The notes below the pieces were generated by a model that ran no database searches, was not told the origin of the DNA, and worked only from the letters and a program-made list of their open reading frames with translations. A stretch of 64,000 bases of DNA from Neodothiora populina (Eukaryota): assembly GCF_041146345.1 (NCBI RefSeq), contig NW_027191417.1, positions 372,001-436,000 of the forward strand. The letters run 5' to 3'. Shown piece by piece: positions 1-28,195 of the stretch (position 1 is the first letter of the stretch; every line of letters starts with the position of its first letter). The position numbers were made by a program, and so were the translations under genes.

Positions 1-1
1 G

Positions 2-1105
2 ATGCCAAAGGATTATGCCGATGGTGTGGATTTCACCAATGGTGCCAACGACCAAGACGACCAAGACGACGATGCTTCTGACGAGGAAATCGAACGTCGC
101 AAGCAAGAAAAGCGTGCCGAAGAGCTCGAGAAGGTCTATCTTGATCAAGAAAGACGCTGGCTCAACGTGGAACGACGCCATATCGCATCTTTGGCGCGCG
201 CCGAAGCCGAGGAGCAGAGTGAAGAAGCCAGCAAGGCCAAACGTCGTGAAGCCTTGGCCGAGAAGTTCAGGTCGTTCGACGACGAGGAAGAGCTCCGACG
301 CCCCAGCGAGTTATTCTATCGCGATCGCAAGGCATGGCGCCGTGCCCGTGCGGATTTCCGCCGCATGGAACGCGAGCGCGACGACATGGACCGCAGAGAC
401 GAAGACCGCGAGCTCAACCGCGAAAAACGCCGTCTGGATGCCGCCAGGGGTATGGCCGACGACTTCCTCTCGCAGACCGGCGAAGAAATCTCCGCGTCCC
501 GCTCCAAACCCCAGCCCAAAGCCAACTTCTCACTCAACCTGGGCGGTTTCAGCATGGGCGGTGCGAGCGCAGGAGCCGCTACTTACGAGGAAGAAGAAGA
601 CCGCAAACAAGAGCGGTCCGCCGGCCGCTCTCACCGCATGCAAGACATGGAGAACCTGCTCGACGACGAAGAAGAGAACGGCGCGGCAGGCACGGGCGAG
701 CGCAAGGCCCTCCGGACCGTCGAGTTCAAGCCGCTCGCTCCAGGCGAGAAAATGTCCGACGAGCAGCGCGTCGCCGCATCCAAAGAACTCGCGGCCAGGA
801 TCCCCACGTCGACCCAAGCTCTGTTCGCGTGGCCCGTCAAATGGGACCACCTCACGCCCGCCATCATCGAGGAGCAGCTCCGCCCTTATGTGCAAAAGAA
901 GATCTTCCAGTCTCTGGGCGTGCAAGAGGACATGCTCGTCGACATCATCGAAAGCGTGGTGCGCGAAAGAGGGTCGCCGGAGAAGATCGTCGAGGAGCTG
1001 TCTGGGCTGCTGGACGAAGAAGCCGAGGACCTGGCCAGGAAGGTGTGGAGGATGGTGGTGTTCTACTCTGAAGTCGAGGCGCAGGGTCTCGGTGATGGCG
1101 CGTAG
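2..1105 (+). CDS. SNU71: U1 snRNP-associated PWI-domain protein (Snu71/RBM25-like), 5'-truncated
   Basis: Long R/E/D-rich charged region followed by a C-terminal PWI domain (IPTSTQALFAWPVKWD...LRPYVQKKIFQSLGVQEDMLVD...LDEEAEDLARKVWRMVVF). The gene probably starts upstream of the window. Confidence 0.8.
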   Translation: MPKDYADGVDFTNGANDQDDQDDDASDEEIERRKQEKRAEELEKVYLDQERRWLNVERRHIASLARAEAEEQSEEASKAKRREALAEKFRSFDDEEELRRPSELFYRDRKAWRRARADFRRMERERDDMDRRDEDRELNREKRRLDAARGMADDFLSQTGEEISASRSKPQPKANFSLNLGGFSMGGASAGAATYEEEEDRKQERSAGRSHRMQDMENLLDDEEENGAAGTGERKALRTVEFKPLAPGEKMSDEQRVAASKELAARIPTSTQALFAWPVKWDHLTPAIIEEQLRPYVQKKIFQSLGVQEDMLVDIIESVVRERGSPEKIVEELSGLLDEEAEDLARKVWRMVVFYSEVEAQGLGDGA

Positions 1106-1607: not shown

Positions 1608-4037
1608 CTAAGCGTGCTGCGCCTGCGCCCCCTCCTCGAGATCCACAGCCTCATACCCGCCCCCTGCACCACTCCTATACCTCATAGCAGCCGGCACCTC
1701 AAACAGTCGTCTATAGTCGACGCTCTCGCCGCCCAGCAGCCCCTGGCCCTCCTTCTTGCTTCCAAACAGCACGCCCTTCGCCCCGCCCGCATCGCACCAG
1801 AAGTCGCCGCAGTTGCGCACGAAGCCGCGATTGAACGGGTTGCGCTTGCGGCGCGCCAGCACTTCTCCTGCGCGCGAGCCGTGCAGCGCGGTCGCGACGA
1901 AGGTGTCGAGTCCGAGCAGTTTCTTCCACTGTGTGAAGCAGGATTCTTTCTGGATTTTCTTGTTGCGGTGGTGGTGCGGGGGAGCGGGAGTTGCGGGGTC
2001 TGGACCGCTGCCTGAGGCGGAGGAGCCTACTGCGGCGCCTTCGGGCGAGGTCGAGCCCGTCGCTATAGCTGTTGTCAGGGCGCCGGCGTGCGCGCCTTTC
2101 ATGCTTTCGTAGGTGGTCATTGCGCGCGCGATCTGGGACAGCTGCACGAAGAGCAGCATTGTTGTCCAGGTTAGCTGTAGGCAACCCCAGCCGTTCACGA
2201 CTAGTGTGAATGGGTCCTTGCACCATTCTGTGCAGAACTCTGGGCCCAGGATCGAGCAGGAGTTGATGAGGTCTGGGTCGGTGGGCGCGGGGAGGACTTC
2301 GATGTAGGCGAGGGTGAGGCGCACGAGGAAGACGAGGCCGACGGCTAGGAAGAAGATGTAGAGGACGAACGGTCGGTGGTTCTGGATGGCGACGCAGTTG
2401 TTGATCCACGGGCAGTGACTGTGCATTGTTAATGTTCTGGTCGTTTTGAATTGCTTGTCGAAGAGTCACTCACTGGTCTTCCCTGGCAACACAGCGGTTG
2501 CATCTCCTACAGTGCTTGCTGCGAAGAGGTTTTCGAATCATACACGTCGTGCAGAAGTGTTGTTCGTTGAAGGTATGCTTCTCTAGCAGATCTTCAATGA
2601 CGGTCTTTTGTTGCGCGCGAGAGGTGGACTTGGGGATGAACCCGGGATCTGCAAACATGCTGACGAAGTAAAAGTAAGTGGTCAGGGATATACATATGGC
2701 GAAGCAGAGATTAAGAATAGGGTTTGTTAGATAAGTCGCTAAAGCACTAGTCAGCATATACTCCCATTTTAGACACTTGTTGCATGGGACGTACCTGGAA
2801 GTATGTGGGTAACGTAACGAAGTGAAACCCAGAAAAGAGACGCTGCAAAAACGCCAGCGAGAAAAGACTGCCCACCGCTTGTGTCAGCCTGGATCTCTGC
2901 AAGATTGACACGGGCACACTCACAGTCTTGTGTAGATGCTTCATGTCGCTAGGGGCCCAGACCAAAAGCCTCTGGCCCAGCCATTGTAAGCTGTAGCTTA
3001 CGGCCATGCTCAATGGCAAGCCAAAATATAACGGCATCCAGGCCAGGATGTACAGGGTACAGCCCAATACAAATGTGGGCCAGCAAAAGAAAAATCGATC
3101 CAGGAATTTCCTTGTGTCCTTGACAAAGGTCAAAGGAAATGCAGAGGGCTGTCCCTCCGAGTCGTATCCACTATCAGCTAGAGCTCGATGCCATTGCCTG
3201 ACCGAGTTCATTTCTTTTGCTGTCACGGCGGGGGTCTTTCCATCGTTATTTGCAGCAAATCGGTCCGCGCCGTATTCGATCAACTTTTGTATGCATGCAT
3301 AGGACCCCTTGACCAATGCCCAATGTAACGCAGTGAAGCCTTGGTCGTCTCGCCTGTGGACGTCTGCTCCCCATCTCAACAGCACGTCTACACATGCCGG
3401 GAATCCTTTGTAAGCAGCCCACATCAAGCTCGTATGCCCCTGCGTGTCCGGTACGTCTACATCAAGGTCGCCTTGGTGCAATAAGAGAATCAGCTGGAAG
3501 ACATTGCCGTCGAGGGTCGCGCAATGCAACAGATTGTAGCCTTGGTCGTCGGTAATGAGAGGGTCTGCACCATTCTGGAGGAGAAGTGATACAATGTCCA
3601 GATTGCATTTCTTGGAAGCCCATAACACAGGGGTTGCCAGAGCGTCACCTCCACGAGCATTAACTGGTGCGCCTGATTGAACGAGAAAGTGACACAGAGC
3701 GTAATGGCCGTTTATGGCTGCCCACTGGTTATTACGCGATCAGCTCCTCATTTCACTATGCGGATTATATATCGATGCATCCTACATGTAAAGCGGTGAT
3801 GCCTTGAGCATCGGTCGAGCTGGCTGTGTATTTCCCTTTCTCGAACAACTTTTGTATGGCCCGAAGTTCACCGAGTCTCGCAAGACCCATAAGATCATCC
3901 TCTATTGGCAACGTTGGAGGCGGCACCGGCGGTTGTTGTTGTTGTTGTTGTTGTTGTTGCTGTTGTTGCTGTGTCATATTCTCGAGTTCGACTTGGCGGT
4001 CGACTGCATTTCCTGGTATCACGCTGCTTTCCGCCAT
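1608..4037 (-). CDS. AKR1: Ankyrin-repeat DHHC-type palmitoyltransferase Akr1
   Basis: Five exons, with introns at 3725-3785, 2868-2923, 2739-2794 and 2419-2473 (GT..AG with branch sites). Contains ankyrin repeats (GITALHWAAINGH, GHTSLMWAAYKG, GFTALHWALVKG), TM segments and a spliced Cys-rich DHHC domain ([37 protein letters not shown]). Confidence 0.95.
3933..3971 (-). repeat. (CAA/CAG)13 coding microsatellite, polyQ in the Akr1 N-terminus
   Basis: TTG/CTG run on the + strand encoding 13 consecutive Gln. Confidence 0.95.
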
Positions 4038-4603
4038 TGCGTCAGGTCACACGCTCCAGCGGGCCGGTAAGATGCTGTTTGTCGTGAGATTTATCTGATG
4101 CAACTTTCCCGCTCTCATAACATCTTAGTGAGCGTCATGTCATGTTCGAAAAGTCGAATGCATCCTTGTGGCAGTGCTTGGTCATACGCGTCTCTCGTGT
4201 TCACCGAGGTGGATTCACCGGAGGTTCTGGATCTCCAGCCAATCATAATGGATTTATTCCGCAATTGTCTTGGCATGAAGCCGTGAAATGCGACGTCGTC
4301 GACTGCTTCCACCATGATTGCAGCAGAACTAGTGTCAAGGCGAGATGTGCTAACACGATAGGGCAACCATACTCAGATGCTTCGCTCTCTCTCCTCTATT
4401 CATCAGATATCTGTGCAAAAGTTCTCAGGTACTATAGCGATGTGTTGTTCCCTGGCGAAGAGGATCAAGGAGTCTCCAATCTCGATACTCTACAATGATG
4501 CATCGAACAGAGGATCACTAGGGTTTTAAAGATATAATGTATTGTATGACCGACATTCGAATACTCCCTACTATACAGATTTGAAGACAAAAGAAATTTG
4601 CAT

Positions 4604-6076
4604 CTAAACAGGCTCTAATAGTTGATTCTCGAGCCATCGCGTAAACTTGACGATCGGTGTGTCAATATACCTCCAGAACAGATCTGCCGCCCATATTGCT
4701 GCCGGAATCACTATGAGACCGCCTAGTGCGAAACCAGTCTCATATTGTCTTGTAGTGCTTTTGCCTGTTGTATTCTCCCAGAGGTTGTAAACGACACTAT
4801 AGCCGAGTGTGTGGTTGATGAATCCATGTACAAGATATAGGGCATAAGAGATGTTGCCCAGGTATCGGCCCAATGCACAAGAGAAGATTCCCTGAAGCGA
4901 AAGGGCATTATTGATAGACCAAATTACCAAGACACTACCAATGGCCATCCAGAATCTGTGCTTCTCGCCCTCACGCAATCCTTGAGGAGACCATTTGATA
5001 AGGTTGGAATAGAACGGCGCAAATTCGGTCTTCTGCGGCGGTATTGACAGCAGAACCAGACCGACGACGAACGCGAAATACCAGAATGCCTTATTCTCGC
5101 TCTCGGAGTGCTTGGGGGGTTCTTTGTGCATAGGGGCACCTTCTTCGATCTTCGCTTCCACATCCGAGAAAGATTCTTGGATCAGAGATGCCTCTGCGAG
5201 GAACATACCACTCCAGAACAGCCCAAGCTCCCAAACATCGCATTGAAACGAGCCTGCAATGAGAAGGCCGAGCGTAATCATACGGACCCTTGTACGTACG
5301 ATGGAGAGTGCTGCAATCGTAAGGAAAAGAACCATAGAGCACCGGAATTCGACAGGTATCGTCCACAAGTGAATGTCATATCCATGAGATGGCCAGTGTG
5401 CATGGGACATTATGTCGAAAAGTCCCTTGGTGGCATGAATGTAGTCCCAGAGTTGTTCGTTGAATGTTTCAAAGACGTGCGGCTGCGGTTCGTGGGCCCA
5501 GCCCCAGTAAATCATCCGGAATGTAACTTCATCTTCACCAAGCGTGTTTGGATAGTCGAAGATACCAACACGCAAAGCAACAAATATCAGTAAAGTCGAA
5601 GCTATGCATGGTAAGAATAGACGGAATGGTCGTCGGAACACTGATGAGGCCAAGGTGCGCATCAATTGAGCATGCGAATGTGAGCGAATCAATTTCAACG
5701 ATTTCAAGCTAAGCGCGTACCCAGATATGACGAAAAAGATGCAGACCATGGACTCTCCGGCTACCAGCAGGCGGAGTATCGGTAGCTGCAAGATATGTCG
5801 ATTTTCGTCCGGGTAGTCTGGGTCTTCAACTGTCCCATACACAAAAGCACCTTTTCTATGGTATGCAAACTCAAAATGGCGAAGAAACACAAAAAACGCT
5901 GCATATCCTCGCATACCATCGAGCCATGCTGTCGGCGTGACCCTGCGTGCTGATGCCGCGGTTGCTGTGAAGACTGGGAGCAAGAAGCTCGGAATTAGCG
6001 CAGTCAGAAGACATCGCAGTCTTCGGTTTGATCTTCGGATGCTTATGTCATGCATCGGGCTCTTGTTATCGTACAT
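4604..6076 (-). CDS. Acyltransferase-3 family (OafA-like) integral-membrane O-acyltransferase
   Basis: Intronless 490-aa ORF with AT3 motifs (WLDGMRGYAA..VFLRH, VCIFFVISGYAL, FRRPFRLFLP, HLWTIPVEFRCS, YLGNISYALYLVH) and many TM helices. Confidence 0.9.
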   Translation of the reverse strand: MYDNKSPMHDISIRRSNRRLRCLLTALIPSFLLPVFTATAASARRVTPTAWLDGMRGYAAFFVFLRHFEFAYHRKGAFVYGTVEDPDYPDENRHILQLPILRLLVAGESMVCIFFVISGYALSLKSLKLIRSHSHAQLMRTLASSVFRRPFRLFLPCIASTLLIFVALRVGIFDYPNTLGEDEVTFRMIYWGWAHEPQPHVFETFNEQLWDYIHATKGLFDIMSHAHWPSHGYDIHLWTIPVEFRCSMVLFLTIAALSIVRTRVRMITLGLLIAGSFQCDVWELGLFWSGMFLAEASLIQESFSDVEAKIEEGAPMHKEPPKHSESENKAFWYFAFVVGLVLLSIPPQKTEFAPFYSNLIKWSPQGLREGEKHRFWMAIGSVLVIWSINNALSLQGIFSCALGRYLGNISYALYLVHGFINHTLGYSVVYNLWENTTGKSTTRQYETGFALGGLIVIPAAIWAADLFWRYIDTPIVKFTRWLENQLLEPV

Positions 6077-7148
6077 TTTTCCATGAGGGGTGCAAAATCA
6101 GGGAGAGAGTGAACAATGATCAGTGGCATATATGTGAAATGGAAGCTCCCATAACTATGCTGGAAATAGCCATGGTAGATACATAGCGTCAAGCATCGGA
6201 TGCCGGCCGAGATGCGTTGCCATCGTGAAACAAACAGCTCTTGAACCCGCCGCGTCGACTGATCGTAGAATGCGCGGCTACACGCTGTGCTGATGAGATC
6301 AATCCGTGATGTGGCAGCTGTCATGGGGCTGCTCTGTGGGGATCTTCATAAATACCTGAAGCTGACGCGCGGCACTACTACTCAAATGGGGATTTGCTTG
6401 TTTACAGTAAGATGCTCCATCCGCAGCTACGGGCCTATGGAGTTAGAAATGCTGATATTCGTGGTACATACTCTGTTGTATTATGATCATATGAAACCAT
6501 TATAGACATGGCTCGGCTTGCAGTATGCAGGCTACCGGAGTCTATCTGCTGCTGGGGCAACTCTGAATACCGCATGGTTTCGGTCTGCAGCAGTGCGAAC
6601 CCATCAGCCAAAGGTCAGGTGCTGTGTGTCTGCTTGACTACCTCGACATCGCTCCCTTAGTTTCCGTCAGTGACTGAGTTTTGGTCGCAATTTGTTGTCT
6701 CTTCCATTGAGTGAGCCGTCATGCTTATATGCGTACGTCAGCCCAGCAATCTATCATTGCGGCCTCCGATGGCTCCTTCCTCTCCATGAGTTATTCTTGT
6801 TGAGGGCTATACAAATTTAGCATCACGAACTTGTATGTCGGCGGCTCGCGAAGAGTTTCTCTGAGGAGCTGCTGTCCCGCTGTTGCACGGAAGACGGGAG
6901 TGCCGGAGTCATGTAAGGGACTGAACTTATGCATACCTACGCATCCATATTAATGGTGAATACCTCACCTCGAAAACACGGCCTTAAAGACTTCGTCTTA
7001 CAATCCGAGAATTTCTTCCTCTAGTCAGTCTGCCTTTTCGAAAGTCAACTTGAATTTCTTTGCGATTGTCGCCTAGCTCTTTTTTCCAATTACTATATGA
7101 GCTTGGCCTTTAACTCGTGAAACACTATATCCTGGACAGCTCGATTGC

Positions 7149-8021
7149 TCAGGCCTTGCCAGCGTAAATCCTGTCTAGATCTTCTCCCTCCACATCGTCG
7201 TGGCCACTCTTAACTAGCTCGTCTATAGCTTGTGCTATAGGCGTTTCACCCTCAAGCAGATCGTACCATCCCCTTGTGTCATTCCTCTCAATCAGTGCCG
7301 CCGCGACCGCAGCGACATCTCCTCTGGGGATTTTACCTTTTGAGGACGTCTTCCCAAGCCACACCTTACCAGTAGGAGCATCATCAGCCAGATTCCCTGG
7401 CCTCAAGTTGATAGCCTGGAATTGCTTATCGCCTCCACTAGCTCGCTTATGAGCCACAGCTAGCAAATGCTCATCCGCAGCGACTTTTGCTTTATAGTAA
7501 TCTGGTAAGATCTCGTAGTTGACTTTGTGGGCGTTCTCCTTGTCTGCTTCGGTCCACCATGGTGCGGCATTCTTTCTAGAGGAAAGATACGAGACCATGA
7601 GGAACTTCTTCACGCTCGGAGTCGAGACAGCAGATGTGATGTAATGCTTTGCAGCGTCCCGATCGATAGCATAGGTCCTTTCGGCACCGCCCTTTCCTCC
7701 GGCACCTGTTGTATAGATTCTCAACAAACATAGTTGTGCATTTCAATATGTAGAAGACTCACCTGCAGACCAAATCACAATCTCCGGATTGACTTTATCG
7801 ATAACTCTCTGTGCGTCCGCGTCGCTCTTAACTTCATCAAGACTTTCGACAAGCACGTCGAGCTTGCCTGGTTGATCCTTGCCAGCAGCAAGAATCTCTC
7901 GCTTATGGTCTGGGTTTCGGATCACACTGGTCACATGCCACTGACGAGCCAGGAGGAGCGGCGTCAGATGCAGAGCAACTTTTCCGTGACCGCCGAGTAG
8001 TAAGACTTTCGTAGATGCCAT
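7149..8021 (-). CDS. Atypical SDR / NAD(P)H-binding protein (YMR090W-like)
   Basis: Rossmann start MASTKVLLLGGHGKVAL. Removing intron 7706-7762 restores VIWSAGAGGKGGAERTYAIDRDAA. Also YYKAKVAADEHL, LRPGNL and IPRGDVAAV. Confidence 0.88.
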
Positions 8022-8599
8022 GATGATAATGATTTTATTGGATTGCGAGAGTAGATACTTGCAGTACTCGTATCTTATAAGCAGCACCACTTGTAAGCTT
8101 TCTTCGAGCTGTTCGAGGCTTACAAATATTGCCTAGGAATATAGCGATCGAATGGTGTGATTGGAGTATGAACGAGCGTGCGGAGAAACATGATGTCACT
8201 CAGAACTTCTGGAAGGCTCCTCCAAGGGACGCTTCGCTCACTATCGATGGTATTTCCCGCGCAACACAGCATCAAGCCAGGAGGTATCTGCGCTTTAACA
8301 GTATGTTCTAGCGAAATGATGCTTGATACTATCGCACGTCGTCTGAAGTCGGTCACTCAGAGCTTTCGCTACGCGTATCCACTCGGCGACGCTGTGGAGC
8401 TGTGAAGTATTGGGATAATGTTATTATCTTCTTCCTTGTAGCACCTCTCAGGCTTCTGCATACGCAAACGAAAGGTCCGCAGATCCACCTCGTTCAACAA
8501 TGATGCCCACATGCAGAGGTCCTTGAACCATAAACACTTTCATGGCATCATCTTGTCCACTGTCATCGAACCACGAAGCGCATAGCTCATACAGCAAGA

Positions 8600-10024
8600 T
8601 TACTCCTTACTGGCCCAGATTCGGTCTGCTTCCAGAGCTGCCACTTCCATCCTTTGCTTGGTCATACTCATCAGAACCTTCTCCTTGCGTACCCATCTTG
8701 CGTCGGCGTAGTTCAGCAATGTGCTGGCTTCTAGTTCCTCCTCCGCCATAGCGTTGGTGACAATGTCGCTGAAAATGTTCCCCATATTGCAGGTCCAGAT
8801 CACCATTTCACGGTAATGTACAATGCCCACATCGGGCTGGTCGATGATGTCAAGGAAATACTGGCGGCGTTGACCAAAGTCCTCAGCACGAGCTTTCTGA
8901 CAGTGCTCGGCGCAGTACTCAGGCCACAGAGTAACCACGTATTTCCAACCGAGTTGTGCTCCTGTGAAATCCACAGCCCAGGACCGACCACCATAAGGAA
9001 GCTGTACTTTGAGGATATAATGAGTGCCTTCGAGCTGGCATTGGCCACGCGCAGCATCACGCAAGTAGATGGGGCGCCGAACACCTTTAGGGACTATCTC
9101 TACCTCTTGGATCTGGGCGGAAAGACCTGGGATGCGTTAGAAACCATGACAAGACACCGCCTGAGTCATGCTTACAAACCTTTGAGGAAAGTATCAATGA
9201 CTTTATGGAAGAAAGCAAGAGCAATATCACAAGTCATGTTGGCAAGTACAGCTTTTTTTTATATCACCGTTCGCAAAAAGGGACTTCTCAAGTGGATAGA
9301 TCCGTCCACCCATCACAAGCTTCGATGCTTGGTTGTAGTCCTCGTCAACGTAGATTCCATCATCCTGCAGGGTTACCTTGACGACAGGGCGGTCGTAACA
9401 GATCTCGCGCCACATCTAGAACAGCTTGGCGATGAGGTTTCCTGCACGGTGAAGTGCTCTTTGGCGCTTCAGAGTCTGCTGCACTTTACAGGTGTCTTTG
9501 TGGTCAGTCCAATGCGCTGCTTGGCACTCTTTGTTACAATAGCGAGGGCAGCTGTATACACTTCCTCCCACCTGTAGTGCGTTGCTGCAGCCGCTGCACT
9601 GGTAACGGGCTCCGATCTTGCTGCAGTTGGAGCATGGTTCACTTGTAATGCTTGACGGCTTCACCGTCTCGTCGGAGTCAGGATCATCTCGAGAAGGACT
9701 GAGAGCAGCCTCTTCATTTTCTTGCGCGCCTTGGTATAGTGGAAGCACTCCAAGCTCTGCCGTGCTTGCTAGAGTTTCATTTTTCCCTGTCGTGGGTTCA
9801 CGACTTTCCCCATGGACCTCTGATAAGCCTTCCTGGTCCGTTTCGTTGCGAAGCAGAACATCGAAGGCTGATTCGCGGTGCGATCCCTGGATCAGAACAT
9901 CGACCATGTCTGATTCAGCGTTACCACTAGCTCTCTCCTTGCCATCTTGAGGATCTGTGGTGTGAAGAGGCGAGGAAGGATCTATAGATAGGTCGAGAAA
10001 TGCCTTGGTGAGGTCTTCTGTCAT
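8600..10024 (-). pseudogene. MYND zinc finger + putative Cys-His-Asp domain protein (array copy A), disrupted
   Basis: MYND finger CSNC..CSGC..YCNKECQAAHWTDHKDTC at 9488-9634. In-frame TAG at 9416-9418. One extra A in the A8 run at 9253-9260; removing it restores KKAVLANMTCDIALAFFHKVIDTFLK. Intron 9127-9179. Last exon contains THYILKV..WAVDFTGAQLGW. Confidence 0.8.
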
Positions 10025-10371
10025 GATGACTGCACGATAACAGGCAACACAGCCAGAAGTTCAATCATCAAATGAGGGAATAGAGAAATGATGTTTATGA
10101 ATTTTCGTCCAGATAAGTGAGGTCCTGCATTTCATTTCTTCCGTGTCGTGAGTTTACCTTGGTTTCTACGTCCCTGGGTCGCGACTGCCTTGTTGCTGTG
10201 CTCCTTCCTATTATCTAGACTTACTTGCAGCACGTTTGCGCATTTGGATGTGGTAAGGTCTGTTTCTCTTGGTACAGGGTTGACGTGAGTCTTAGCTCTA
10301 GGTTACCTTATCTATCTAGTTTCACCACTCCTTTACAACATGTTAGTCGAAGACATACGAGTCGAACGCTG

Positions 10372-11413
10372 TCAGCCACCCGCCTGCGGCACCTCAAGCC
10401 CTTGTTCGCGCACATACATAGTGTTGGCAGACATGACGGCTGCTTCGATGAACTGACGAACCATGTCTAAAAAAGCTCGCCTCTTCTGCTGGAACTCCAT
10501 TTCTGGCAGCTCCAACATTTCTGTTGCACCCGAATCCCACACTCGAAATTGAGTAGTCATCAAAGCCTCGAACCCATTGGCTATGTCGTAGGTCCAAGTG
10601 TAGTCGGCTCGTCGCCTCGTGCGAGCCCAATCTATATGCATCTCATAGTTCTCAAGTCCAGAAGCATTCAACACGAGGTGGCTTGTATCGCAGCGGTCCC
10701 GTAAGAGCTCTTCCCAGGAGATTAGGGGATCATACCAGCCATATTGTGCTCCGGAAAGGTCAAGGGCGTATGAAAGGTGTTGTTTATCTTTGAGTGTCAC
10801 TCTCCATAGGCAATGCTCGAACATGGCGTTGCACTTAGGCTGTCCTTCCGCATTCGTTCTCTCTACGGAAAGAGGGGGGCATTGAAGCCCAGCGCTGGCT
10901 TCTTGCAGTATTGCAATATCTAACAAGAATCAGCAAAGCCAGATGAAGTCACCTTAAAGGTAGTGGCTAACCTTCCAACATCCAGACGGCAACTGCATGT
11001 AAATGGGCAATTACAGTCTTGCAAGTCAAGAAAGACAGTAAGCTCTTCCTTATTGGATCTCTTCGGTCCAATTGTCCAGGGTCTGTTAGAAGAGGTCTCC
11101 AAGAAACTACAGGCTCTAGACATTGGGCATGAAAAGACATTGTCTTTGCGTCGATCCATTGAACATCTCGAACATCGAGCATGAAAGTGTAATTGCGATA
11201 GATGTACCACATGTCTTGGAGCAGATATGCACCGCGGCGTAATTTATGCTCCGGACAGTCGACAGTAGATCTAGAATCTGGAAGTCGGGGAAGATGAAAC
11301 GAGTCTCTATTCGTGGGGTGAGGGCTGCATTCGGTGTTCGACGGCTTCTCAGTCGCGTCAGGCGAGCGAAGCCGTTTACATATTGTGACAAAATAGCAGC
11401 GAAGGCGCCGCAT
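10372..11413 (-). CDS. Array copy B: putative Cys-His-Asp (transglutaminase/papain-like) domain protein, no MYND finger
   Basis: Two exons with a phase-1 intron at 10920-10971. Motifs LRRGAYLLQDMWYIYR, LLSFLTCKTV and EHCLWRVTL..YALDLSGAQYGWYDP. TATAAA at 11502-11507. The exact start codon is uncertain. Confidence 0.75.
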
Positions 11414-11604
11414 TTTGGGGAGGGGAATCCGATTCCTTAATGAAATCCTTGATCACTCTCAACTTTACTATGCGTACAGGCGATGAAAGATCTTTCAAGC
11501 ATTTATACTGTAAGTCGGTCGAGCGCGAAAAGCGTGTTGTACGATTTGCTGAGACATTGATCTGGTCGGAAGTTTTGTCGCCTTTCACACATTGGTGGCG
11601 AAGA

Positions 11605-12579
11605 TCATACACTAAGCTTTCCCGCCTGATGATGGAGTATATCTGATTGCTGTCGTCTAGCATTTTTGCACTGTTCTTCCCAGACCGAAGACCAGGAGAA
11701 CGAATTCCAGATCTCGTCGGTTGCAAGAGTTGCTATCTGTGCTTGTCGCCGAACTTCTCCAATTACGCTGTGCTCCGATATAAGCCTTTGGTTTTCCGGC
11801 CCTCCAAGTAAATTTTCGGTAGGTAAATCGTGCAGCAGCTGCTCCATGATAATGGCGAAGTGCTGTTGAACAGAAACGTAATAATTATCAACTCTTGGTA
11901 ATGCAAATCCAGGGAGTTGTTTCTCTGCGGCGACAAGTGGCAGGAAGTCCTGATGGCCCTTTAGGGCCACGAAAAATGCTTCATTATGAAGACATCGCTC
12001 CTGCAAACACAGATTCCAGGGACATATCGGATCCGTCCATCCGTACTGTGAGCCTGTGAGGTCAACAGCGAATATCTCTCCCGACTTGAGCGTCACACGC
12101 CAACATTCATGGCGGTAGTCGAAATTGCTGAATGAAGGGCTGCCATCCGGTTCCATTGTGACAATCAAGGGCGGTTCTTTCAACAGAAACATTGCCACCT
12201 CGACTTTCTCAGCTATGTCTGTGAAAATGACTATCAGCTATCCACAGACCGTTAACCGGGTTTCAAATTCGGGCATACCGTGAAGAAGCCACTCAATGAC
12301 ACATTGCATATGTCTGACCGCGACATTGCACTGCAGGAAATTCAGTAAGATGGTCTTATCCTTTGGCGTTCTACACAAATTATTCGGCAATACAGTCAGA
12401 GGGCTCGTAGTCCCTGGACGCCTTTTAATGGTTTTTTCCAGACATCCGCTACGCAGGATCAAACGACGTGGGCTTTTCCATATGATTTGGTCTGTTTCAT
12501 CTGCGTATATTTCTTCTCTATAGGCAAGCCATACTTTGTTGAGCAGTTCAATCGCCTGGCGAAGGCGAGCCTCACTCAT
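11605..12579 (-). CDS. Array copy C: putative Cys-His-Asp domain protein, no MYND finger
   Basis: Two exons with a phase-1 intron at 12219-12278. Motifs LRQAIELLNKVWLAYRE, LLNFLQCNVA and RHECWRVTLKSGEIFAVDLTGSQYGWTDP. TATATAAG at 12741-12748. Confidence 0.82.
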
Positions 12580-14038
12580 AGGTACTCGGATGTCGATTGC
12601 GAAGTGGTAATGGTATAATTCAATCTATGACGCCCAGGATGTATAAGGCTGTCGAATCGTAGTATGACGCTTTTAGACTCGGTGCTTCTAAGTTAGATCA
12701 ATAAACGAAGGTTGTCTTTCAACCAGGACGTTTTCAGGGTCTTATATACACAAAATATCAATTGAACTACAATGGAAAGCTGGACAACGGGAGAAGGTAA
12801 ATGTTATATTCCTACCTCGCCGCGGGAGAAGGTGACAAAGTGGTAATGGTGGTGGTAAGAGTGGCACGCATACCTTACCTTTGCCTTCACCCTTACCTTA
12901 CCCTTACCTCTCCTACCACGGCCGACCCACCTAAGCTCCCCAGGCCAGCCGCGCTGTTCCCGTCCGGCATCCCTCGGCGATTGTGACAAGCAGCGCAGAC
13001 GTACAGTAGTAGTAGAACGCTTACTATATCCATCATTATCCTCATCGTCATTGCTTCCCTTGCCCCCCCTTACCTTACTGTACCCTTCCGCCCAGTCTTG
13101 ACAATATTACAAACAAAGAAAGAAAGATAAACAACCGTTATTTCCTCCACCCGCTCTCTCGTCTACTAGTAAGCCTGCCTCCAAAGAAATCCCACGCGCT
13201 CGGCTGCCGGCCGCGTGACATCGTTAGAAAGCGGGCAAGGCAAAACCAAAAAAAAGCTTGTCACTAGAAAAAGTGTCGCACGCTGCGCCCGTGAAGTACC
13301 GAGACATTTTCTGTGTCTTTGGAGCTGGGCGACGCTACACTACTACTACTACTGTATGTCGTTCTTCATCAAGCGCCGTGCAAGCCCGCTGGACGCACGT
13401 GGATGGCTATCTCAGTTTTGGTTTTCAAGTCTCCGGTGTGAGGGTCCTTTTGCTATGTAGCTTGATGTCATTGGGGTCGATTCTTCTAAGACTGATATAA
13501 TATAGAAGTAAAGGTGGGTTGATTAACGTACTAAGGATGCTGTAGAACTGTAAGTGTCGGAGGAACTTGGAAGATTATTCCCGGCTAGGTATACCCGCTT
13601 AGCGGCGGCGGTACTGGGTCTCGCCAGTATAAGGTGATGTGTACTGTTTGCAAGATGTCTGGTCACTGCTGCGCGATTTGAGCTCTCGAGGGCAAGATCA
13701 CTGCAAAATAATGTCGGAAAAGGCAGGTAAGGTTGATGTGGGCGACATGGGCTGGGTAAGTTGGTGTGTTGTGCGAGGCAGTACTACTGAAGCATCTTGA
13801 TATGCATTCATTAAATTTGAGCTGGGGGTTGTAGTCCTCCAAAAGAGTGATTGATATTATGATAGATATAGAGCCGTCTCAATAACCGCATATAAGCAAA
13901 GTGGTATCTGATGAAAATCACTCATCCCTCCCATCTCAAAGGCAATTGTACACTCCAAGCCAAATCAACACCAGCTCATCTGAGCATTTGTAACAGGAAA
14001 AAGCCTCGCCATCCCCAGCTCCAATCTTATATATATCT

Positions 14039-15083
14039 TCAATCCTCGTCTTCTCTGTCAGACTCCTGACTGAGCGCATATTCCCAGTCACGATCGGTAT
14101 CAGCCCATATATCGTCGGCAAACACCGCTGCTGTCCAAGCACACTCGCAGACCGCAGCGATCAATGCGTCCCTAAATCCTTGAGCTGAATCGTTGCTGTC
14201 ACCACCCGTTCCTGGCGACATGGTTGCCATTACTAGTGCTCTGGTCGCGTCATGCCTCGACAGAGAAGTCTGCAGACCCTCGTTGAAGTAACGCAACACC
14301 GATGCACGATGGTGGGGTCGCTTGTGCACTTCGGTGTCCCATCTGTCGTTGTCGCCGGTACTGCTGTTACCCGCATGTTCCAGAAGAGATAGACGCGAAT
14401 CAGCGCTTCCATCACCCTCGCCGGTAGCTGGCTGCTGCGAAGGCGGGCTCGCCTGATAATCCCAGCGTATATCGAGGAGTTCTTGCCACGCGCATACAGG
14501 GTCAAACCAGCCGTATTGTGAGCCAGTAAGGTCTAGAGCCCAGAGGCTGCCGTCCAGGAGTGTGATTTTATATACTGAATGAAGAGGCTGCATGTTGTGG
14601 ATTGTGGCTACGTTTGTAACCTCCTGCCAGACCTTGAAGACAGTACCCTGTACATGGAAGAACACCACTTCAAGAGATTGGATTATACCTAGAACCGATT
14701 TTGCTACCGTCAGACATTCTATCATGGTAGCTAAGAACGCCGATAGTCATGCTGATGGAGGGCATGAAAGATGGTAAGAGAAAGTGGATCTCACTTTGTA
14801 GAAGCCAGCGGCTGAGCTTTTCCATATGTTTGCATGCCATACCACAAGAGAACTGGTCGAGAAGGATGACTTCCTCACGCTTGTCGAGACAAAGCTCCTT
14901 TGGGCATCTATATATCAGGCCTGCCGGCCGCCTTTTCGGCGCTGTAAAGTGAGACACCAGGACGATGTTCTGCGGGTCGTCCCATCTTATGTCGACGATG
15001 TCCTGGTCAAAAGTTTCTTGCCGATATGCGTGCCATGCATCCAGTAGTATAGCTGCCGCACGTCGCAGCAGTGGTTCGGTCAT
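14039..15083 (-). CDS. Array copy D: putative Cys-His-Asp domain protein, no MYND finger
   Basis: Two exons with a phase-1 intron at 14689-14794 (alternative in-frame acceptor at 14731). Motifs LRRAAAILLDAWHAYRQE, LLDQFSCGMA and LHSVYKITLLDGSLWALDLTGSQYGWFDP. TATATAA near 15211-15219. Confidence 0.82.
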
Positions 15084-16169
15084 CACTTCTGGTTTCGTAT
15101 TACTAACTGGGAGGGGTATTACTGGGGATTGAGTCCGAAATCGTTCGACAGCTAGATGCTGCTGTGCGCTTGGGGACGGTACATCTATTTACTCCGCGAA
15201 GTATAGATAGTTATATATAGCATCAACGTGAACGAGTAGATCTTGTAATTCATGGTTGCGTTGTACGGCTGACAACGCTTGAGTATCATGAGGTCGTACA
15301 AGAAACGCTTGTGAGGGTGGTTCGTTATGCTTGCTATGCAACATCGATAGAATGTGATTTCTTGACCGGTATACTATTATTTCGAGTATCAGTGTTTGCG
15401 CACATGAGCGCACGTGGGTTGTGCAAGGTAGCTATCGTCAATCAAGCCTGGTCGCGGAGAAGGAACGTAACAGGTGAATTTCCACAAGCACTCTTAGGCA
15501 GAATACTATCGGTCATATACGCAGTCGCTGTGGGTTTCAGGTAGAGTTTCGATGCTAGCGATTGTTTGAATGCCAAACCACATGACGTGTCTGTGTAACA
15601 TCTTGGTCGAGGTGGATATGCTGCACTTGCACGGGACAGATGACCTGGCACATCTATCATGCGGCAGGCGACGTGCCCATTAGCTGCCCAACGGTCCTGC
15701 AAGGAGACAAGTTTTGCTTTAATAAAGGGGTCGTGATGGCGAAGTTTCATAATAAGGACTGTATGAGTGATTGTGATACCTGCGAAGCCGTGAATACTGG
15801 AAAGACTGAACCACTCGTAAGCACGAAACTTCAGGGTACATGTATAGTGAGCTTGGCACATTAACGATCGAGCACTTAGGCGCTCAGTGGGTTGCGAGGG
15901 AACATCATAAATTAGAAAAGAGAAAGGTGCGTAGTTTGTGGAGAGAAAAGACCAAACCTATTGCTTTTATCTCATCTGACCTGATCCGGGAGATAACATG
16001 TGGGCATTTCATCATTCTTCAACCAATCCGTTTTACACGCTCAAATTCCTCTCTTTCCTCGTTGCGATAAAGACGTCGCCCATCTTGTCATTCCCAACGC
16101 CAATAATGCCTTTAGCAATAAGTAAATCAGAAGAGCAAAAGATGTGAACAGTCGACATCAGCAGGAGTT

Positions 16170-17106
16170 TTATGTTGCCTTCTTGGCGAACTCGACACGG
16201 AGAATCAGGTGACCGTAACCGAAGCCGTCCATCTTCTCGCATGCTAGCGCAGCATCAGAGCGATCGACGAAAGAAACGAAAGCGAAGCCCTTTGCCCTGC
16301 CCGTTTCCCGGTCCTTAGCAAGGAAGACACGAGTGACACGGCCGAAACGTTCGAACAATGCGCGGAGTTCGTCTTCTTCGGCGAACTCGGAGACCTGATG
16401 TATATAGATTAGTGTTGAATCTCAAAAGTGTTTGTCGCAAGAGAAAACGCACGTTGGTGACACGTAGAGTAGCCAGATCGTCCCTCTCGTACTTTCCACC
16501 CATTCTCTCGCCGCCAGCACTGCCACCGTTTCTCATGTGAGGAGGAACGTATGAGGAACCGCCCTTGCCCAAGCCACTGCCCAGTCCTTCCAGAGTCTTG
16601 GATCCGACCTCCTCGCCCAGGTCTGGGGGACCAGCTCCAGCCTCTCCCTCGGGTGCCATGGTGTCCTTGAAGGGACACTTGGTGGTGAAATGGTCGCCGG
16701 AACAGATACGACACTTGATGGCCATCTTCTTGAGAGCCTCGGTCTTCTTGTCCTCCTCGGCGCTGGGGGCCTCAGCGGCACCAGACTTGTATCCAACAAC
16801 TGGTCGGAAGATGATGTTCTCACCAAGGGTGGTGGTGTCGCTGTGAGGGCCGGGTGCACGGTTTGCCTCAATTCCCATCTTGGGCCACTGTCTGCGCTCT
16901 GCGACTCCGGGCTTCTCGTAGATACGCTTGGTGATGGTTCGGATGCGCTGGGTGCGCTTGACTTTCTTGCCATCTTCGTTCAGGAAAACGGTGACGATGG
17001 TCTCGGTACCATCCTTGTTCTTGGTGCGTGTGGGTTGCGGCAGAGCAGAGGCGAGATCTGGCTCGTCGTCCTCGGCCCAGTCGGTGCGTCCTGGCGTGTT
17101 GGACAT
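16170..17106 (-). CDS. TIF35: Translation initiation factor eIF3 subunit g
   Basis: DWAEDDE N-terminus, zinc knuckle [24 protein letters not shown], and a C-terminal RRM (AKGFAFVSF). Intron 16395-16452. Confidence 0.97.
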
Positions 17107-17884
17107 GATTGTGGTAGATGTGATGGTCCCTCTGATGCGTGAGGCTGTTGCGACAAGGAGAGATGCTGAGTGATGGGACAGATGCTTGTTGCAGGTTCTG
17201 ACACTTTCTTGATCCTCACCGTCGTCTCTTTCAAACGCACTCAAAGCATTCTCCACGCGAATTTCAATTCTGCCAAGATTTACACCGGATCGGTGGTCGG
17301 GGCTGAAATCGCTCCGACTCCAGGTCGCCAAGACCCAAGTATACTCGATAAGCTGGACAGCCGCATACGTTATCATGCTTTTACTAGGTACCTTAATTAC
17401 TCAGAGGCAAGGTAACGTATTCTAGGCACTCTGATTATCGATCTAACCGATTGCTATGTAAGCTGTTCTTCTTACACACATGCACTATCACACCGACGTT
17501 ATTACCAAGCCTTCGCTCTCTCGGACAATGTCGCCCTTGAGACCATGAGCTCGCTTGCGTAAGGCCGTCGACGGCCGCGGTATGATTGTGAGGCCGCGCA
17601 GACTGTACGCTTCAGCAAAGGTATAAGAGTAAGCCTCGAGGCGCCGTGAACATGATTTATCATTCAGACATCCCTCCATCATCAGCTCTCATATCCGCAA
17701 TCATCAGATATCATACCAATCAATAAGCACCTCACCATAACACTCAAGCATTCTACCATACCAATCAAGCACCTCAGCTCAACGTGATATATTCTCTACT
17801 GTCGTCCTTTCCCTTTTTTCTACCTTCCTCATCAATCACCTCTTATCCCTCTGCGATAGCAAAAGAATACACATAATTGCAATC

Positions 17885-18817
17885 ATGTCCAAGGGCCTAC
17901 TTGTCACTGGCGCCACAGGCAAACAGGGTGGCGCTACTATTGATGCACTGCTTACTGCCCCCGGTGGTAGCGCTTACACAATCTTGGCCGTCACCCGATC
18001 GGCTGCCACATCACCTTCTGCACAGCGTCTGACCTCGAAGGCGTCCAATGTCAAGATTGTACAAGGTGACATGGATGACGTTCCGGCCATATTCTATGCA
18101 GCCAAAGCTGTACATCCTTCCGGCGTCTGGGGGGTCTTGAGCATTCAAGCGCCAGTGGGCAAAGGGCAAACGGTCGAGAAAGAAGAAATCCAAGGCAAAA
18201 CCCTCGTCGACGAAGCTCTGAAATCTGGTGTCAAGCAATTCGTCTATTCATCTGTGGATCGCGGCGGTGACCAAAAGTCGGCTTCCACCGCGACTCCGGT
18301 CCCACACTTCGCAAGCAAGTACAACATTGAGCAACACCTCATCAAGCAGGCCAATGGTAGTGGCATGGACTATACGATCTTACGTCCGGTCGGCTTCATG
18401 GAGAACCTCACCCCGGATTTCATGGGAAAGATGTTTGGCGCCATGTGGATCGCATCTCTACCTAAAGACCGCAAACTGCAGCTCGTATCCACTACCGATG
18501 TCGGCCATTTCGCAGCTCAGGCGTTCCTTCGACCTGAGCAATACAAGAATCGCGCCCTCAGTCTGGCCGGTGATGACCTGACCTTCGCCGAGACCAGCAA
18601 GATATTCAAGGAGAAGACAGGCAGCCCTGCCCCTCATACTTATAGCTTCCTGGGCCGCGCCTTGATGTGGGCTGTCGGAGAGCTGGGTATCATGTTTACT
18701 TGGTTCAAGACTGATGGCTACGGTGCCGATATCCCTGCCTTGAAGAAAGAGTATCCGGGTCTCAAGAACCTTGGCGAATGGCTTGAGCAGAACAGTGCCT
18801 TTTCGAAGAAGGATTAA
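17885..18817 (+). CDS. NmrA-like family NAD(P)-binding protein
   Basis: LLVTGATGKQGGA, FVYSSVDRGG, VPHFASKYNIE, YTILRPVGFMEN and LSLAGDDLT. Single exon, 310 aa. Confidence 0.92.
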   Translation: MSKGLLVTGATGKQGGATIDALLTAPGGSAYTILAVTRSAATSPSAQRLTSKASNVKIVQGDMDDVPAIFYAAKAVHPSGVWGVLSIQAPVGKGQTVEKEEIQGKTLVDEALKSGVKQFVYSSVDRGGDQKSASTATPVPHFASKYNIEQHLIKQANGSGMDYTILRPVGFMENLTPDFMGKMFGAMWIASLPKDRKLQLVSTTDVGHFAAQAFLRPEQYKNRALSLAGDDLTFAETSKIFKEKTGSPAPHTYSFLGRALMWAVGELGIMFTWFKTDGYGADIPALKKEYPGLKNLGEWLEQNSAFSKKD

Positions 18818-19487
18818 TTGGATCCATAAGGTATCAATGAATCGCCGTTATAATGGACGATGGTGTTAGCACAAAAGACAAGAAAAACTGGTTTGAATTT
18901 TGGCAGGAAGCTTAATGACATATGACGCCTAATATTTAATCATCTATTCTAATTCAATTGCAATTTCATCACAACTCTTGATATTTCGAATGATTTCTGA
19001 TAGTAGAAAAAAGCATATTGCCGAAGCATGACTTACTGTACGTCTCTTTTGTCAGGGCATACAGACTGAGCAAACAAGCAAAACGCCTCATGTCTTCCCC
19101 AATAACCCCGCACATAAGTTACTGCATCCGAAAGCCCGCAGCTCTTTTCCCTTCCCCCACCATGACTGCCCCGCATCTAAGAAACAGAAGGCGACCATCA
19201 AGCCTCGGACGACAACTTTACTACAGTAAGATAGTATGACAAGCAGGTCTTCTCCGACTGCATATTGCCGGCTGTATCCACTGGAATAAGGGTACCATCA
19301 TCATGTCGAAGCCTCAGCACCAAAAAACCCCACACAAACGATTGACCTCCAAAAGTAAATAGATACGATGTCCAATCTCGCACTCTTCGCTTCGCGTCTC
19401 CTCTGGCTTGGCTTCGAGAGCGTAAGATTTCGCTTATAAATTGGTATCCTGATTGATTGTGGTTCCTCTGTGCGTCACTGAAAGCAT

Positions 19488-19518
<31 letters not shown>

Positions 19519-19602
19519 TCTTGCTTGGATATAGTCTGCCATCTTCATATCATCCATCAGATACTCAATTGAGCATCTCTCCTCGCACTCGCACTCGCAC
19601 TC
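19488..19602 (+). repeat. (GCTT)7 and (CTCGCA)3 microsatellites upstream of the dehydrogenase gene
   Basis: Seen directly at 19491-19518 and about 19582-19602. Confidence 0.9.
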
Positions 19603-19607
19603 ACGCA

Positions 19608-20737
19608 ATGTCTTCCGAAACGATGAAAGCAGTGGTGTTCAAGGGCCCGCACAGCGTGACTGTCGAGGACCGGCCTGTTCCCAAGATCAAGGAGCCGACG
19701 GACATCATCGTCAAGGTTGAGTATACTGCGCTATGCGGTAGTGAGCTGCACGTCTTTCGAGGCCACCAGCCCAGTCCTACGGGCTTCATCATGGGCCATG
19801 AGTTCACAGGTCGTGTGCACGAGGTATGTGCGAACTTGTGCCTTGAGTTCGTACCACTGCTGACACCAGACACAAGGTCGGCTCGTCAGTCAAGAACTTC
19901 AAAGTCGGCGAATTAGTCGTCTCCCCATTTACCACCTCCTGCGGCGCGTGCTTCTACTGCGAGCAAGGCTTCAGCAGCCGCTGCGTGAAGTGTCAACTCT
20001 TTGGTAGCGCGGGACTCGATGGCGGCCAAGCAGAATATGTACGCATCCCTCTAGCAGACACGACCGCATTCGGGGCACCACAGGGCATCTCGCCCCACGC
20101 TCTGGTGCTCATGGCCGACATCTTCCCGACCGGCTACTACGCCGCGAACAACGCGTACAAGCACTTCACCTCGGACCAGTACTCAAAAAGCACAGTCGTC
20201 CTCCTCGGTCTAGGTCCAGTAGGTCTCTGCGCCCTGCTCAACATCCTCGACCACAAGCCCGCGCACATCATCGCCGTCGATTCTGTGCCCTCGCGTCTCG
20301 ACCTCGCCAAATCCCTCGGCGAGGGCAAAGTCGAGGCCTTCAACTTCATGACCAACGGCGACGAGCTGAAGTCCCGCATTAAGGAATTGACCGACGGCCG
20401 CGGCGCCGACGCCGTCATCGAAGTTGTGGGCTTGTCGCCTGCTCTGCGTCTGGGCTTCGATCTCCTGAGACCATGGGGCATCATCTCCAGCGCGGGCGTG
20501 CACAATGCCGAAATCCCTTGGACCGGCAACGAGGCGTACAATAAGAACGTCAGGATCCAAATGGGCAGGTGTCCAGTTAGGTCCATTTTCCCTCAGGCGC
20601 TCGAGAAGCTCGAGGTCATGCAGGATAAATTGGGCTTCATGGCTGATCGCGTCATGGGCCTCAGTGAGGCTGTCGAGGGCTATGATTTGTTTGATAAGAT
20701 GAAGGCGCAGAAGGTCATGTTTGATGCTACCAAGTAA
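19608..20737 (+). CDS. Zinc-dependent medium-chain alcohol dehydrogenase (FDH-like MDR)
   Basis: ALCGSELH and MGHEFTG, intron 19824-19876, structural Zn motif CGACFYC..C, ADIFPTG and GLGPVG. Confidence 0.93.
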
Positions 20738-21465
20738 GCGATAGGGGCATGTTTGTTTTCTCGTGATTTGTTTTTGCCTCTCCTGGCAACTTCTTCTTGA
20801 TTTCATGAGTATTTGGAAACTCATGTATTGGATGGTGTGAAGACTTCTTGCAATTGAATCTGGCTGGTGCCCTTACGAACACCGCACAAGTCCGCTGCTC
20901 TTCTTGATACCTCGCTCTTACCATGTCTCTTCTTGTCAATACCCCGCTTTCTGGATCCCCAAGAGTCTTTTTGCGACTTTGAACGTTTGGCAGTCCCACT
21001 CTGAGTGAAGTATTTCTGAAATGAATTGTAAACTTGATAATAGTCCGTGTCTTATCTGCTGTGCATGTTTGTCACACAAACACGAGTGCCAGTCGCGCCT
21101 GTCTGCGCCTGAAATTTGACTGAATGTCCCATGTGCCTTGCATGTTTCTCGAAACGCCCCCCAATAATCCCCGAATTGCACCAAAAATTCGCCCTTCTTC
21201 ATGGGGTTGTTTCCTTGTCCCCCAATTCCCATGACTCCCCCATTCCTTATCCAAAGCCTGATCTCCGATCCTTCGGTCTCAAGAACGGCACGTCGGCCGA
21301 TGATTGAGTGAATTTCCCATGATAAAAACGCCGTCATCAACACGTTGAAATACGAGGAGATGCACCTGTTCCTCTTGATTTCCTTTTTTTTTCTCTTTCC
21401 TCCTCTTGTGCATGTCCTTCTCTGCGTCCTGTCTACTTCTTTACCTCCGAATGGAAATTGACTCC

Positions 21466-21923
21466 TTAATTGACCTGAGCGAGCAACTCTGCCTCAAGGA
21501 TAAATTTTCCCTCCTTGTACTTCTCTGCAGGTTCGTAGGCCTTGTCATATTTCCAGCCGACAGTCTCCTTGCAGTGGCGACAGTATATGTCGCGGACAGT
21601 GTGACGGCCCGTCGTCATGTTGCGTTCGGTCGCGTCGCCCTGAGTCACGTTTACGACCGAGTTGAATAGGTAAGCTTTGCCGTGTTGGCCTCTGAAATTC
21701 TAGAGAAGAGAAAGAGTGTCATTGTAAGCTTATTTACAGTCATTCGGTAGGATTTTGGAGTGTGAGGGCGTCATCTTTGAGAGAGGTAGGGGCAGTCGTA
21801 TCGTGATCAGGCAGGCAAACTCACTCTACTGATGATTTCATCGTGATCTGCGAGGTGAGTCTTGCATGCTTTACAGCCATAGATCCTTGAAGCGTTGAGA
21901 TAGACGTTGTATGCGAGACCCAT
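21466..21923 (-). CDS. MOH1: Yippee-like zinc-binding protein (Moh1/YPEL)
   Basis: [19 protein letters not shown], intron 21700-21824, then [43 protein letters not shown]. Confidence 0.93.
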
Positions 21924-27759: not shown

Positions 27760-28195
27760 TTTCAAGCTACAAGTAGTTGTAATAATTCCTGTTGTGCAAG
27801 AGAGTGAATTTCCTACTGTTGACTGGAAGGTTGGGAGGCTCCGATAAAGCCAATGTCTTTTCGTCATGATTCACCTAAACTGCTTGAACGGAAGGTCAGA
27901 AAGCGCCGATAACGCCGGTCAGTCTGACACACTCCAGGCTGCCCCTCTGTCACTTCCCGCCTATTATAGGAATAATAATAATATCACACGTGCCACAACA
28001 CTCGTCCATCACATTCATCCATCATCGGATTTGGTGACTTCTTGCTTCGAATAGGTCTTTCACCGTCTGTTCCTGATCCAAGAGACGTCTCTGAACTCCG
28101 TTCAACAGATCTCCCCTTTCGCCATCCGCCAACCTTATCCGTGCCTAACCATCCACCCACTCACCAAAAACGACACTTACACATACATCCTAGCC

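Follow-up and report, generated by a model that had tools for sequence, protein, structure and literature searches.

The 64,000-nucleotide (nt) window analysed here belongs to the fungus Neodothiora populina (RefSeq assembly GCF_041146345.1, contig NW_027191417.1, positions 372,001 to 436,000 of the forward strand), and all coordinates below are counted from its first letter. Between 8600 and 15083 it carries, on the minus strand, four related genes, named A to D from low to high coordinates, which belong to a protein family with a candidate catalytic triad of Cys, His and Asp. An earlier inspection of the letters alone (hereafter the sequence-only reading) had placed four same-strand paralogues there, and this was confirmed. 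When a profile of family homologues was run against all six-frame open reading frames (ORFs) of the window, nine ORFs matched, with E values from 2.7e-54 to 1.3e-3, and 9/9 lie inside copies A-D; the same search of the 64-kb window gave no fifth copy.

Three of the copies look intact and correspond to annotated genes. Copy C, whose protein matches the deposited AAFC00_004541 (P0001, 304 aa) with 100% identity, comprises exon 1 at 12279..12579, with the Cys codon at 12328-12330, a 60-nt intron at 12219..12278, and exon 2 at 11608..12218, which holds the His (12109-12111) and Asp (12061-12063) codons, ends at the stop in 11605-11607 and matches the profile at E 2.7e-54. Copy B (AAFC00_004540; P0178, 329 aa) has exon 1 at 10972..11413 (Cys codon 11021-11023; profile E 8.9e-15), a 52-nt intron at 10920..10971, and exon 2 at 10375..10919 (His 10813-10815, Asp 10759-10761, stop 10372-10374; profile E 9.4e-34), with a poly(A)-like end at about 10275. 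The spliced models of both C and B are letter-for-letter the same as the deposited proteins. In copy D (AAFC00_004542), exon 1 at 14795..15083 (Cys codon 14844-14846), over which the deposited P0011 is identical for residues 1-96, is followed in the NCBI model by a 106-nt intron at 14689..14794 and by exon 2 at 14042..14688 (His 14579-14581, Asp 14531-14533, stop 14039-14041; profile E 1.6e-28). An alternative in-frame acceptor of this intron ends at 14719. The annotated acceptor, 30 nt downstream of the one first chosen, was adopted because it restores a Cys-to-His spacing of 53 residues, as in C.

After splicing and alignment, the four copies share a GT..AG intron of 52-106 nt, in phase 1 and at a common alignment position, and in 4/4 a Cys lies 17 residues ahead of the split codon, as had been claimed from the letters. 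The His follows at the predicted distance of about 50 residues, namely 52 in A and B, and 53 in C and in D with the annotated acceptor. An Asp is found after it in every copy, at 17 residues in A, 18 in B and 16 in C and D, so that the proposed residue stands while its spacing is corrected from 15-17 to 16-18. This Asp opens the motif D[LF][TS]G[SA]Q[YL]GW in 4/4 copies, again as proposed, and the remainder of the proteins is indeed highly diverged, with pairwise identities of 17.9-28.6% over 250-269 aligned columns. The candidate triad in copy C is C84, H137 and D153. Scanned singly against Pfam at E<=1, the exons yielded sub-threshold noise only (PLipase_C_C, Glyco_transf_56), and none of B, C and D matches zf-MYND at E<=1; within the window, only copy A has a MYND zinc finger.

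Copy A differs from the others in being broken. Its N-terminal ORF, at 9419..10024 on the minus strand, carries the MYND finger at ORF residues 131-179 (Pfam zf-MYND, E 3.2e-6, 27.5 bits against a cut-off of 22.7), and is closed by an in-frame TAG (9416..9418) that falls within the conserved N-terminal helix. A run of eight A (9253..9260), just upstream of the Cys motif, marks a +1 frameshift, and the pieces on both sides match the family profile, in frame 0 at 9251-9415 and in frame 1 at 9181-9258. A putative phase-1 GT..AG intron of 53 nt (9127..9179), retained in a contig of run X2, separates these from a second coding part at 8603..9126 (His 9020-9022, Asp 8969-8971, stop 8600-8602; profile E 7.9e-30). 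The codons for Cys (9229-9231), His and Asp are all still present. The TAG is unchanged, and the A run has no indel, in contigs from X1 and X2, two read sets of the same sample, one of which may be the source of the assembly; a contig of run X3 covers 9459-9957 only. Because the stop and the frameshift interrupt the enzyme part, copy A is probably a pseudogene in that part, and would yield at best a 202-residue product consisting of the MYND region only. The supposed array of four genes therefore holds for B, C and D as seemingly intact members, with A as a decayed one.

Run X2 is labelled 'DNA?', and we infer that it is cDNA. One X2 contig, running from 13472 to 10275, omits exactly 12219-12278 and 10920-10971 (CT..AC on the plus strand), and has a loose end of 25 T. 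If X2 is cDNA, the introns of C and B are real and spliced, the B mRNA ends about 100 nt past its stop, and both genes appear to be transcribed and spliced. The same minus-strand contig (10275-13472) spans C, a 190-nt gap and B with both introns gone, and reaches about 890 nt upstream of the C ATG. It could represent overlapping or read-through transcripts, or a very long C leader; this leader of about 890 nt contains no MYND-like ORF. An X1 contig is one base short at 10874, in exon 2 of B, and at 13063, where X2 agrees with the window at both positions, and the X2 contig has an extra A after 13247. These single-base differences are probably raw-assembly or homopolymer effects.

Beyond this locus, a phmmer search with P0001 against 1.84 billion representative proteins gave 183 matches at E<=1e-3, each standing for a cluster at 50% identity, and 21 at E<=1e-10. 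Named members were found in Dothideomycetes (Aureobasidium, Glonium, Lophiotrema), Leotiomycetes (Leptodontidium, Leptodophora, Cadophora, Cudoniella, Halenospora and one Mollisiaceae isolate), Sordariomycetes (Paramyrothecium, Hypoxylon, Apiospora) and Lecanoromycetes (Gyalolechia, Blastenia), and all are labelled 'hypothetical' or 'MYND-type domain-containing'. Word-indexed homologue searches returned few relatives, 2 in one and 10 in another, and a search for fused forms of greater length (567-2000 aa) gave none, which is weak evidence. In 35/43 long members scanned, a zf-MYND finger lies N-terminal of the domain with no other Pfam family, and zf-MYND is detected at E<=10 in 58/86 members. 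The description of the domain as MYND-associated is thus right for the family, while in the window it applies to copy A only. Over the domain itself, 0/86 members match any Pfam family even at E<=10; the same 0/86 was obtained for PF09764 (Nt_Gln_amidase) at E<=10 and for PF01841 (Transglut_core). This is an unnamed family of Pezizomycotina, the filamentous ascomycetes, without a Pfam model, and the claim that it was uncharacterised is borne out.

Conservation was counted in a profile alignment of 151 listed proteins, in the numbering of copy C. H137 is kept in 138/139 rows and D153 in 142/142, and the residues that follow the Asp are almost as constant (Q158 in 135/142 rows, G160 in 138/142). 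C84 is kept in 76/89 rows (85%), so it falls short of invariant; the invariant triad announced by the sequence-only reading is present in 4/4 copies of the window, and for His and Asp in nearly the whole family, but not for Cys. Of the 79 rows covering both halves, 67 have CHD as their triad, 5 SHD and 4 AHD, while LHD, DHD and CFD occur in 1 each. The Cys does not vary alone, since Q158 is found in 67/68 rows with Cys vs 6/12 without it, and Y171 in 51/68 vs 2/12, with a Fisher p of 2e-5 for the association that overstates it, the rows being related. The Cys-less rows come mostly from one clade. Such a pattern of co-loss fits an active site that would be used by most members and abandoned by one lineage. 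In P0092, P0096, P0115, P0123, P0146 and P0151 Ala, Ser or Leu stands in place of the Cys, and Arg or Lys in place of Q158, with the Asp kept, and the His kept where covered (the row of P0096 does not reach the His column); these six proteins are candidates for a pseudoenzyme branch. P0096 (700 aa, Paramyrothecium) also shows two separate profile-matching stretches behind one MYND finger, which may reflect a tandem duplication of the domain within the protein.

The fold was predicted with AlphaFold2, using an 86-row alignment for copy C and, as a second model, P0021, a MYND-bearing Leotiomycete member 22% identical to it. The copy C model has a predicted local distance difference test (pLDDT) of 89.3 and a predicted template-modelling score (pTM) of 0.85, and runs from an N-terminal helix through a beta-hairpin and loop, a helix led by C84 and a sheet to a C-terminal helical hairpin. 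Helix 84-90 begins with C84, strand 136-144 has H137 at its start, and D153 comes directly after strand 149-152. P0021, modelled at pLDDT 94.4 and pTM 0.92, has the same layout, with C139, H191 and D208, and C139 is likewise the first residue of its helix (139-145). The features by which the superfamily is recognised (Cys at the N-terminus of a helix, His in a strand, Asp at the end of the next strand, in the order Cys-His-Asp) are found in both models, and the predicted core fold superposes on solved papain-like and transglutaminase-like members.

Foldseek returned nothing significant for either model, and NTAQ1 (3c9q) was its sole non-MYND row with a probability >0.5 in both searches. A second look at Foldseek's 734 candidates with the copy C model placed in rows 1-45 only members of the superfamily, among them SseI (7.4), protein-glutaminase (6.8) and NTAQ1 (6.7, with 137 residues aligned). 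For P0021 the same set gave NTAQ1 5.7, SseI 4.9, protein-glutaminase 4.6-4.4, LapG 4.3 and GdmF 4.1. Among solved structures, those that best match the alpha/beta core all belong to Cys-His-Asp enzymes of the papain/transglutaminase-like superfamily. NTAQ1 aligns over 1..219 of the copy C model with chain residues 7..167, and over 64..267 of the P0021 model with 12..166, ranges that are compatible with an equivalence of the modelled triads to that of NTAQ1. ESM Atlas leads for P0001 (Transglut_core with template-modelling (TM) scores of 0.26-0.35, Peptidase_C71, EDR1) were weak and were set aside, as they were not repeated for P0021, whose neighbours are mostly other MYND proteins. Transglutaminase-core (PF01841) sequences for a profile comparison were sought in the E. 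coli K-12 record, which contained none, and this route was given up.

Our preferred reading is that the core of the family is a papain-like or transglutaminase-like alpha+beta domain, of the NTAQ1, protein-glutaminase, SseI and arylamine N-acetyltransferase (NAT) kind, with a Cys-His-Asp triad, and we give it a probability of roughly 0.6. The fold taken separately, as modelled, is very probably of the papain/transglutaminase type, and the layout suggested from the letters is upheld by two confident models and by core matches of one enzyme class. By analogy with those enzymes, activity as a thiol enzyme appears probable. Taken together, predicted fold and conservation support the papain/transglutaminase-like reading well, short of proof.

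Several observations weigh against it. No sequence method ties the family to any known papain-like family; profiles run against PDB sequences give only MYND domains or helical noise (E>=0.65), with no NTAQ1 chain at E<=10, and hhalign, run with the family against E. coli NhoA, reports a probability of 0.15%. The exhaustive list for P0021 is led by helical and MYND rows, with NTAQ1 (5.1) at rank 25 and SseI (4.9) at rank 45; in that list 2hly scores 6.0 with 155 residues aligned. In the copy C model, a plain hairpin register would pair D153 nearer to residue 140 than to 137. The sole cDNA-like contigs of X2 over A (8500-10101) and D (13829-15281) retain their introns, and as contigs prove presence, not absence, D may still be spliced. 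Finally, 11/79 homologues have Ser, Ala, Leu or Asp in place of the Cys and yet retain His and Asp, which is odd if both serve only a Cys nucleophile.

That last observation is an argument for a different function of the same fold, in which the domain would be a pseudoenzyme or scaffold that works by binding, with His, Asp and GxQxG kept for structure or for a ligand. Inactive papain-like domains do exist, Rad33 and CC2D2A being examples given in the accessible part of PMC10318531, and fusion to a protein-binding MYND finger and a long helical hairpin would suit an adaptor. This explanation is nevertheless rather unlikely, since the Cys stands in 76/89 rows and in 4/4 copies of the window, and its loss is accompanied by that of Q158 and Y171, as expected of an active site given up by one clade. 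Moreover, five of the 11 replacements are to Ser (against Ala in 4, Leu in 1 and Asp in 1), and the same source states that Cys-to-Ser forms can stay active in this superfamily. It is improbable, to a further degree, that the domain is not papain-like at all, its similarity being a common alpha+beta likeness and His, Asp, Gln and Gly forming another site (metal, nucleotide or a His-Asp hydrolase), with the Cys incidental. The lack of any detectable sequence link and the helical rows heading the P0021 list are what such an explanation would lead one to expect; the Cys at the head of its helix in two models, and the 45 leading superfamily rows for copy C, are what the papain/transglutaminase-like reading would.

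The sequence-only reading had also likened the locus to fungal conflict, defence or effector loci, that is, to a recently amplified and fast-diversifying set of genes for toxins, effectors or allorecognition. The arrangement as a strongly diverged tandem array, one decaying copy, and bacterial effectors and toxins among the structural neighbours (SseI, the Pasteurella toxin C3 domain PMT-C3, SpvD, Ceg10) speak in favour of it, as does the clade of B, C and D in the tree. The tree was built with FastTree from 77 rows covering >=150 of the first 200 profile positions, with fragments excluded and P0001, P0011 and P0057 replaced by our own models, and it unites B, C and D in one clade (support 0.96), in which C and D go together (0.88); A groups with B-C-D and with the MYND-bearing Aureobasidium proteins P0018 and P0027 (0.80). 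Those two proteins had been tried as orthologues of copy A, to which they are only about 27% identical, so they were not used to date its breaks. In assemblies of relatives, C-like and D-like exon ORFs occur on contigs of the same size (9060, 9361 and 3198 nt), which hints that the array is present there too. Because of the 18-29% identity among the copies, the tree and this hint from relatives, the array is better explained by old local duplications with loss of the MYND finger than by a recent burst. The paralogues are too saturated for dN/dS. Exon-1-like ORFs of relatives are 62-76% identical to copy C (P0003, P0005-P0008), and exon-2-like ones only 39-48% (P0002, P0004, P0009, P0010); either the Cys-bearing N-terminal part evolves more slowly than the His/Asp part, or the ORFs come from different species.

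Other features of the locus also argue against a conflict function. In B, C and D, no hydrophobic run of >6 residues occurs near the N-terminus (residues 1-35), by a test for signal peptides that is crude, and the usual fusion partner of the family, the MYND finger, is intracellular. The flanks (1-8132 and 16318-31676), by Pfam, hold PWI, ankyrin with DHHC palmitoyltransferase, Acyl_transf_3, NAD(P)H-binding, eIF3g, NmrA-like, zinc ADH (alcohol dehydrogenase), DAO, MFS and CUE genes, which are of housekeeping types, and no NLR or HET gene is among the flanking genes so scanned. With old duplicates, such N-termini, such neighbours and a decayed copy, this part of the sequence-only reading did not survive, and a conflict, defence or effector locus is now very improbable. 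Between D and eIF3g there is also a 171-residue ORF (15445-15957, minus strand) that has no Pfam match at E<=1e-5.

If the papain/transglutaminase-like reading is correct, the ancestral protein would have begun with a MYND finger, followed by a long N-terminal helix, the catalytic core and, at the C-terminus, a helical hairpin. B, C and D are tandem duplicates that lack the MYND finger and are seemingly intact. In the mechanism that we propose, the thiolate of the helix-capping C84, activated by the strand residue H137, which D153 would orient, attacks the carbonyl of an amide or ester in a protein substrate to form a thioester. This would then be resolved either by water, as in a deamidase or peptidase, or by an amine, as in a transamidase or in acyl transfer. 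In members that have it, the MYND finger may recruit the enzyme to a partner protein with a proline-rich motif; MYND domains of solved structure bind short peptides rich in proline, and an entry titled 'ETO2 MYND bound to MPPL peptide' is among the PDB matches.

As to the chemistry, the leading guess is that of a protein-Gln amidase, because the four best structural neighbours (SseI, protein-glutaminase, NTAQ1 and Pasteurella toxin C3) are glutamine deamidases. That the members would be amidases of side-chain or N-terminal Gln/Asn, and not peptidases or acyltransferases, is a tentative analogy at this stage; peptidase and acyl-transfer chemistry follow behind it. More specific, and doubtful as a whole, is the proposal of a Pezizomycotina-specific branch of NTAQ1-like protein amidases, in which MYND would dock the core on proline-rich partners, whose Gln or Asn would be deamidated or transamidated so as to switch their stability or interactions, with B, C and D as untethered derivatives that have new targets. 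Were it true, fungi would have a new system of targeted protein deamidation. The family comprises 183 clusters in at least four classes of filamentous ascomycetes, has no Pfam model and, if active, would add a eukaryotic intracellular branch with a docking module to the transglutaminase-like cluster. It also offers natural contrasts, with a broken MYND-bearing A beside three MYND-less copies and, elsewhere, a clade without the Cys, Q158 and Y171.

Among known enzymes, NTAQ1 (PF09764; 4W79, 3C9Q) offers the closest parallel in the arrangement of the triad. The triad of hNtaq1 is C28/H81/D97, according to the portion of PMC4214742 available to us, so that its spacing of 53/16 is identical to that of C84/H137/D153 in copy C. 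The sequence similarity between the two is undetectable, and the family differs from NTAQ1 by an insert of about 50 residues with a beta-hairpin ahead of the helix that carries the Cys, a helical hairpin of about 100 residues at the C-terminus, GxQxG after the Asp and, usually, the MYND finger. The protein-glutaminase of Chryseobacterium (2ZK9, 3A54, 2KSV) and the SseI/Pasteurella toxin C3 group (4G29, 4G2B, 2EBF) are bacterial secreted enzymes or toxins, with triad spacings of 41/20 and 38/15 unlike those of the family; they have no sequence relation to it, no MYND finger and no helical tail. Looser alignments, with root-mean-square deviations of 3.7-7.0, were obtained with arylamine N-acetyltransferases and amide synthases (1E2T, 2IJA, 1W4T, 8K51, 8OOM), LapG (4FGO) and vasohibins, whose reactions vary from acyl transfer through periplasmic proteolysis to tubulin detyrosination. 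A 2023 census of papain-like proteins, in its accessible part, places NTAQ1, NAT, vasohibins and Transglut_core (PF01841) in one cluster (PMC10318531).

The same part of that census lists 2HLY (APC5867, DUF2026/PF09641) as papain-like with Ser for Cys (PMC10318531); this is a bacterial protein with an annotation that gives no function, and it is 5-7% identical to the family. MYND is unmentioned in that part, three supplementary files included, and nothing relevant was found in the literature on MYND with transglutaminase or papain-like terms. A parallel for the architecture is that of deubiquitinases of the UCH/USP type with zf-MYND, in which a MYND finger is also joined to a domain of the papain superfamily; in one Atlas cluster, PF00443 is present in 100% and zf-MYND in 94% of the 943 members. 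Unlike the family, these have a USP catalytic domain, which belongs to another papain-like cluster and is far larger. A MYND-bearing USP resembles P0021 weakly in structure (TM 0.29 by query, 0.18 by row), and this likeness probably stems from the MYND finger. By comparison with these systems, the family stands as a new branch, still without a name, of a known superfamily, and its MYND-linked architecture is distinctive.

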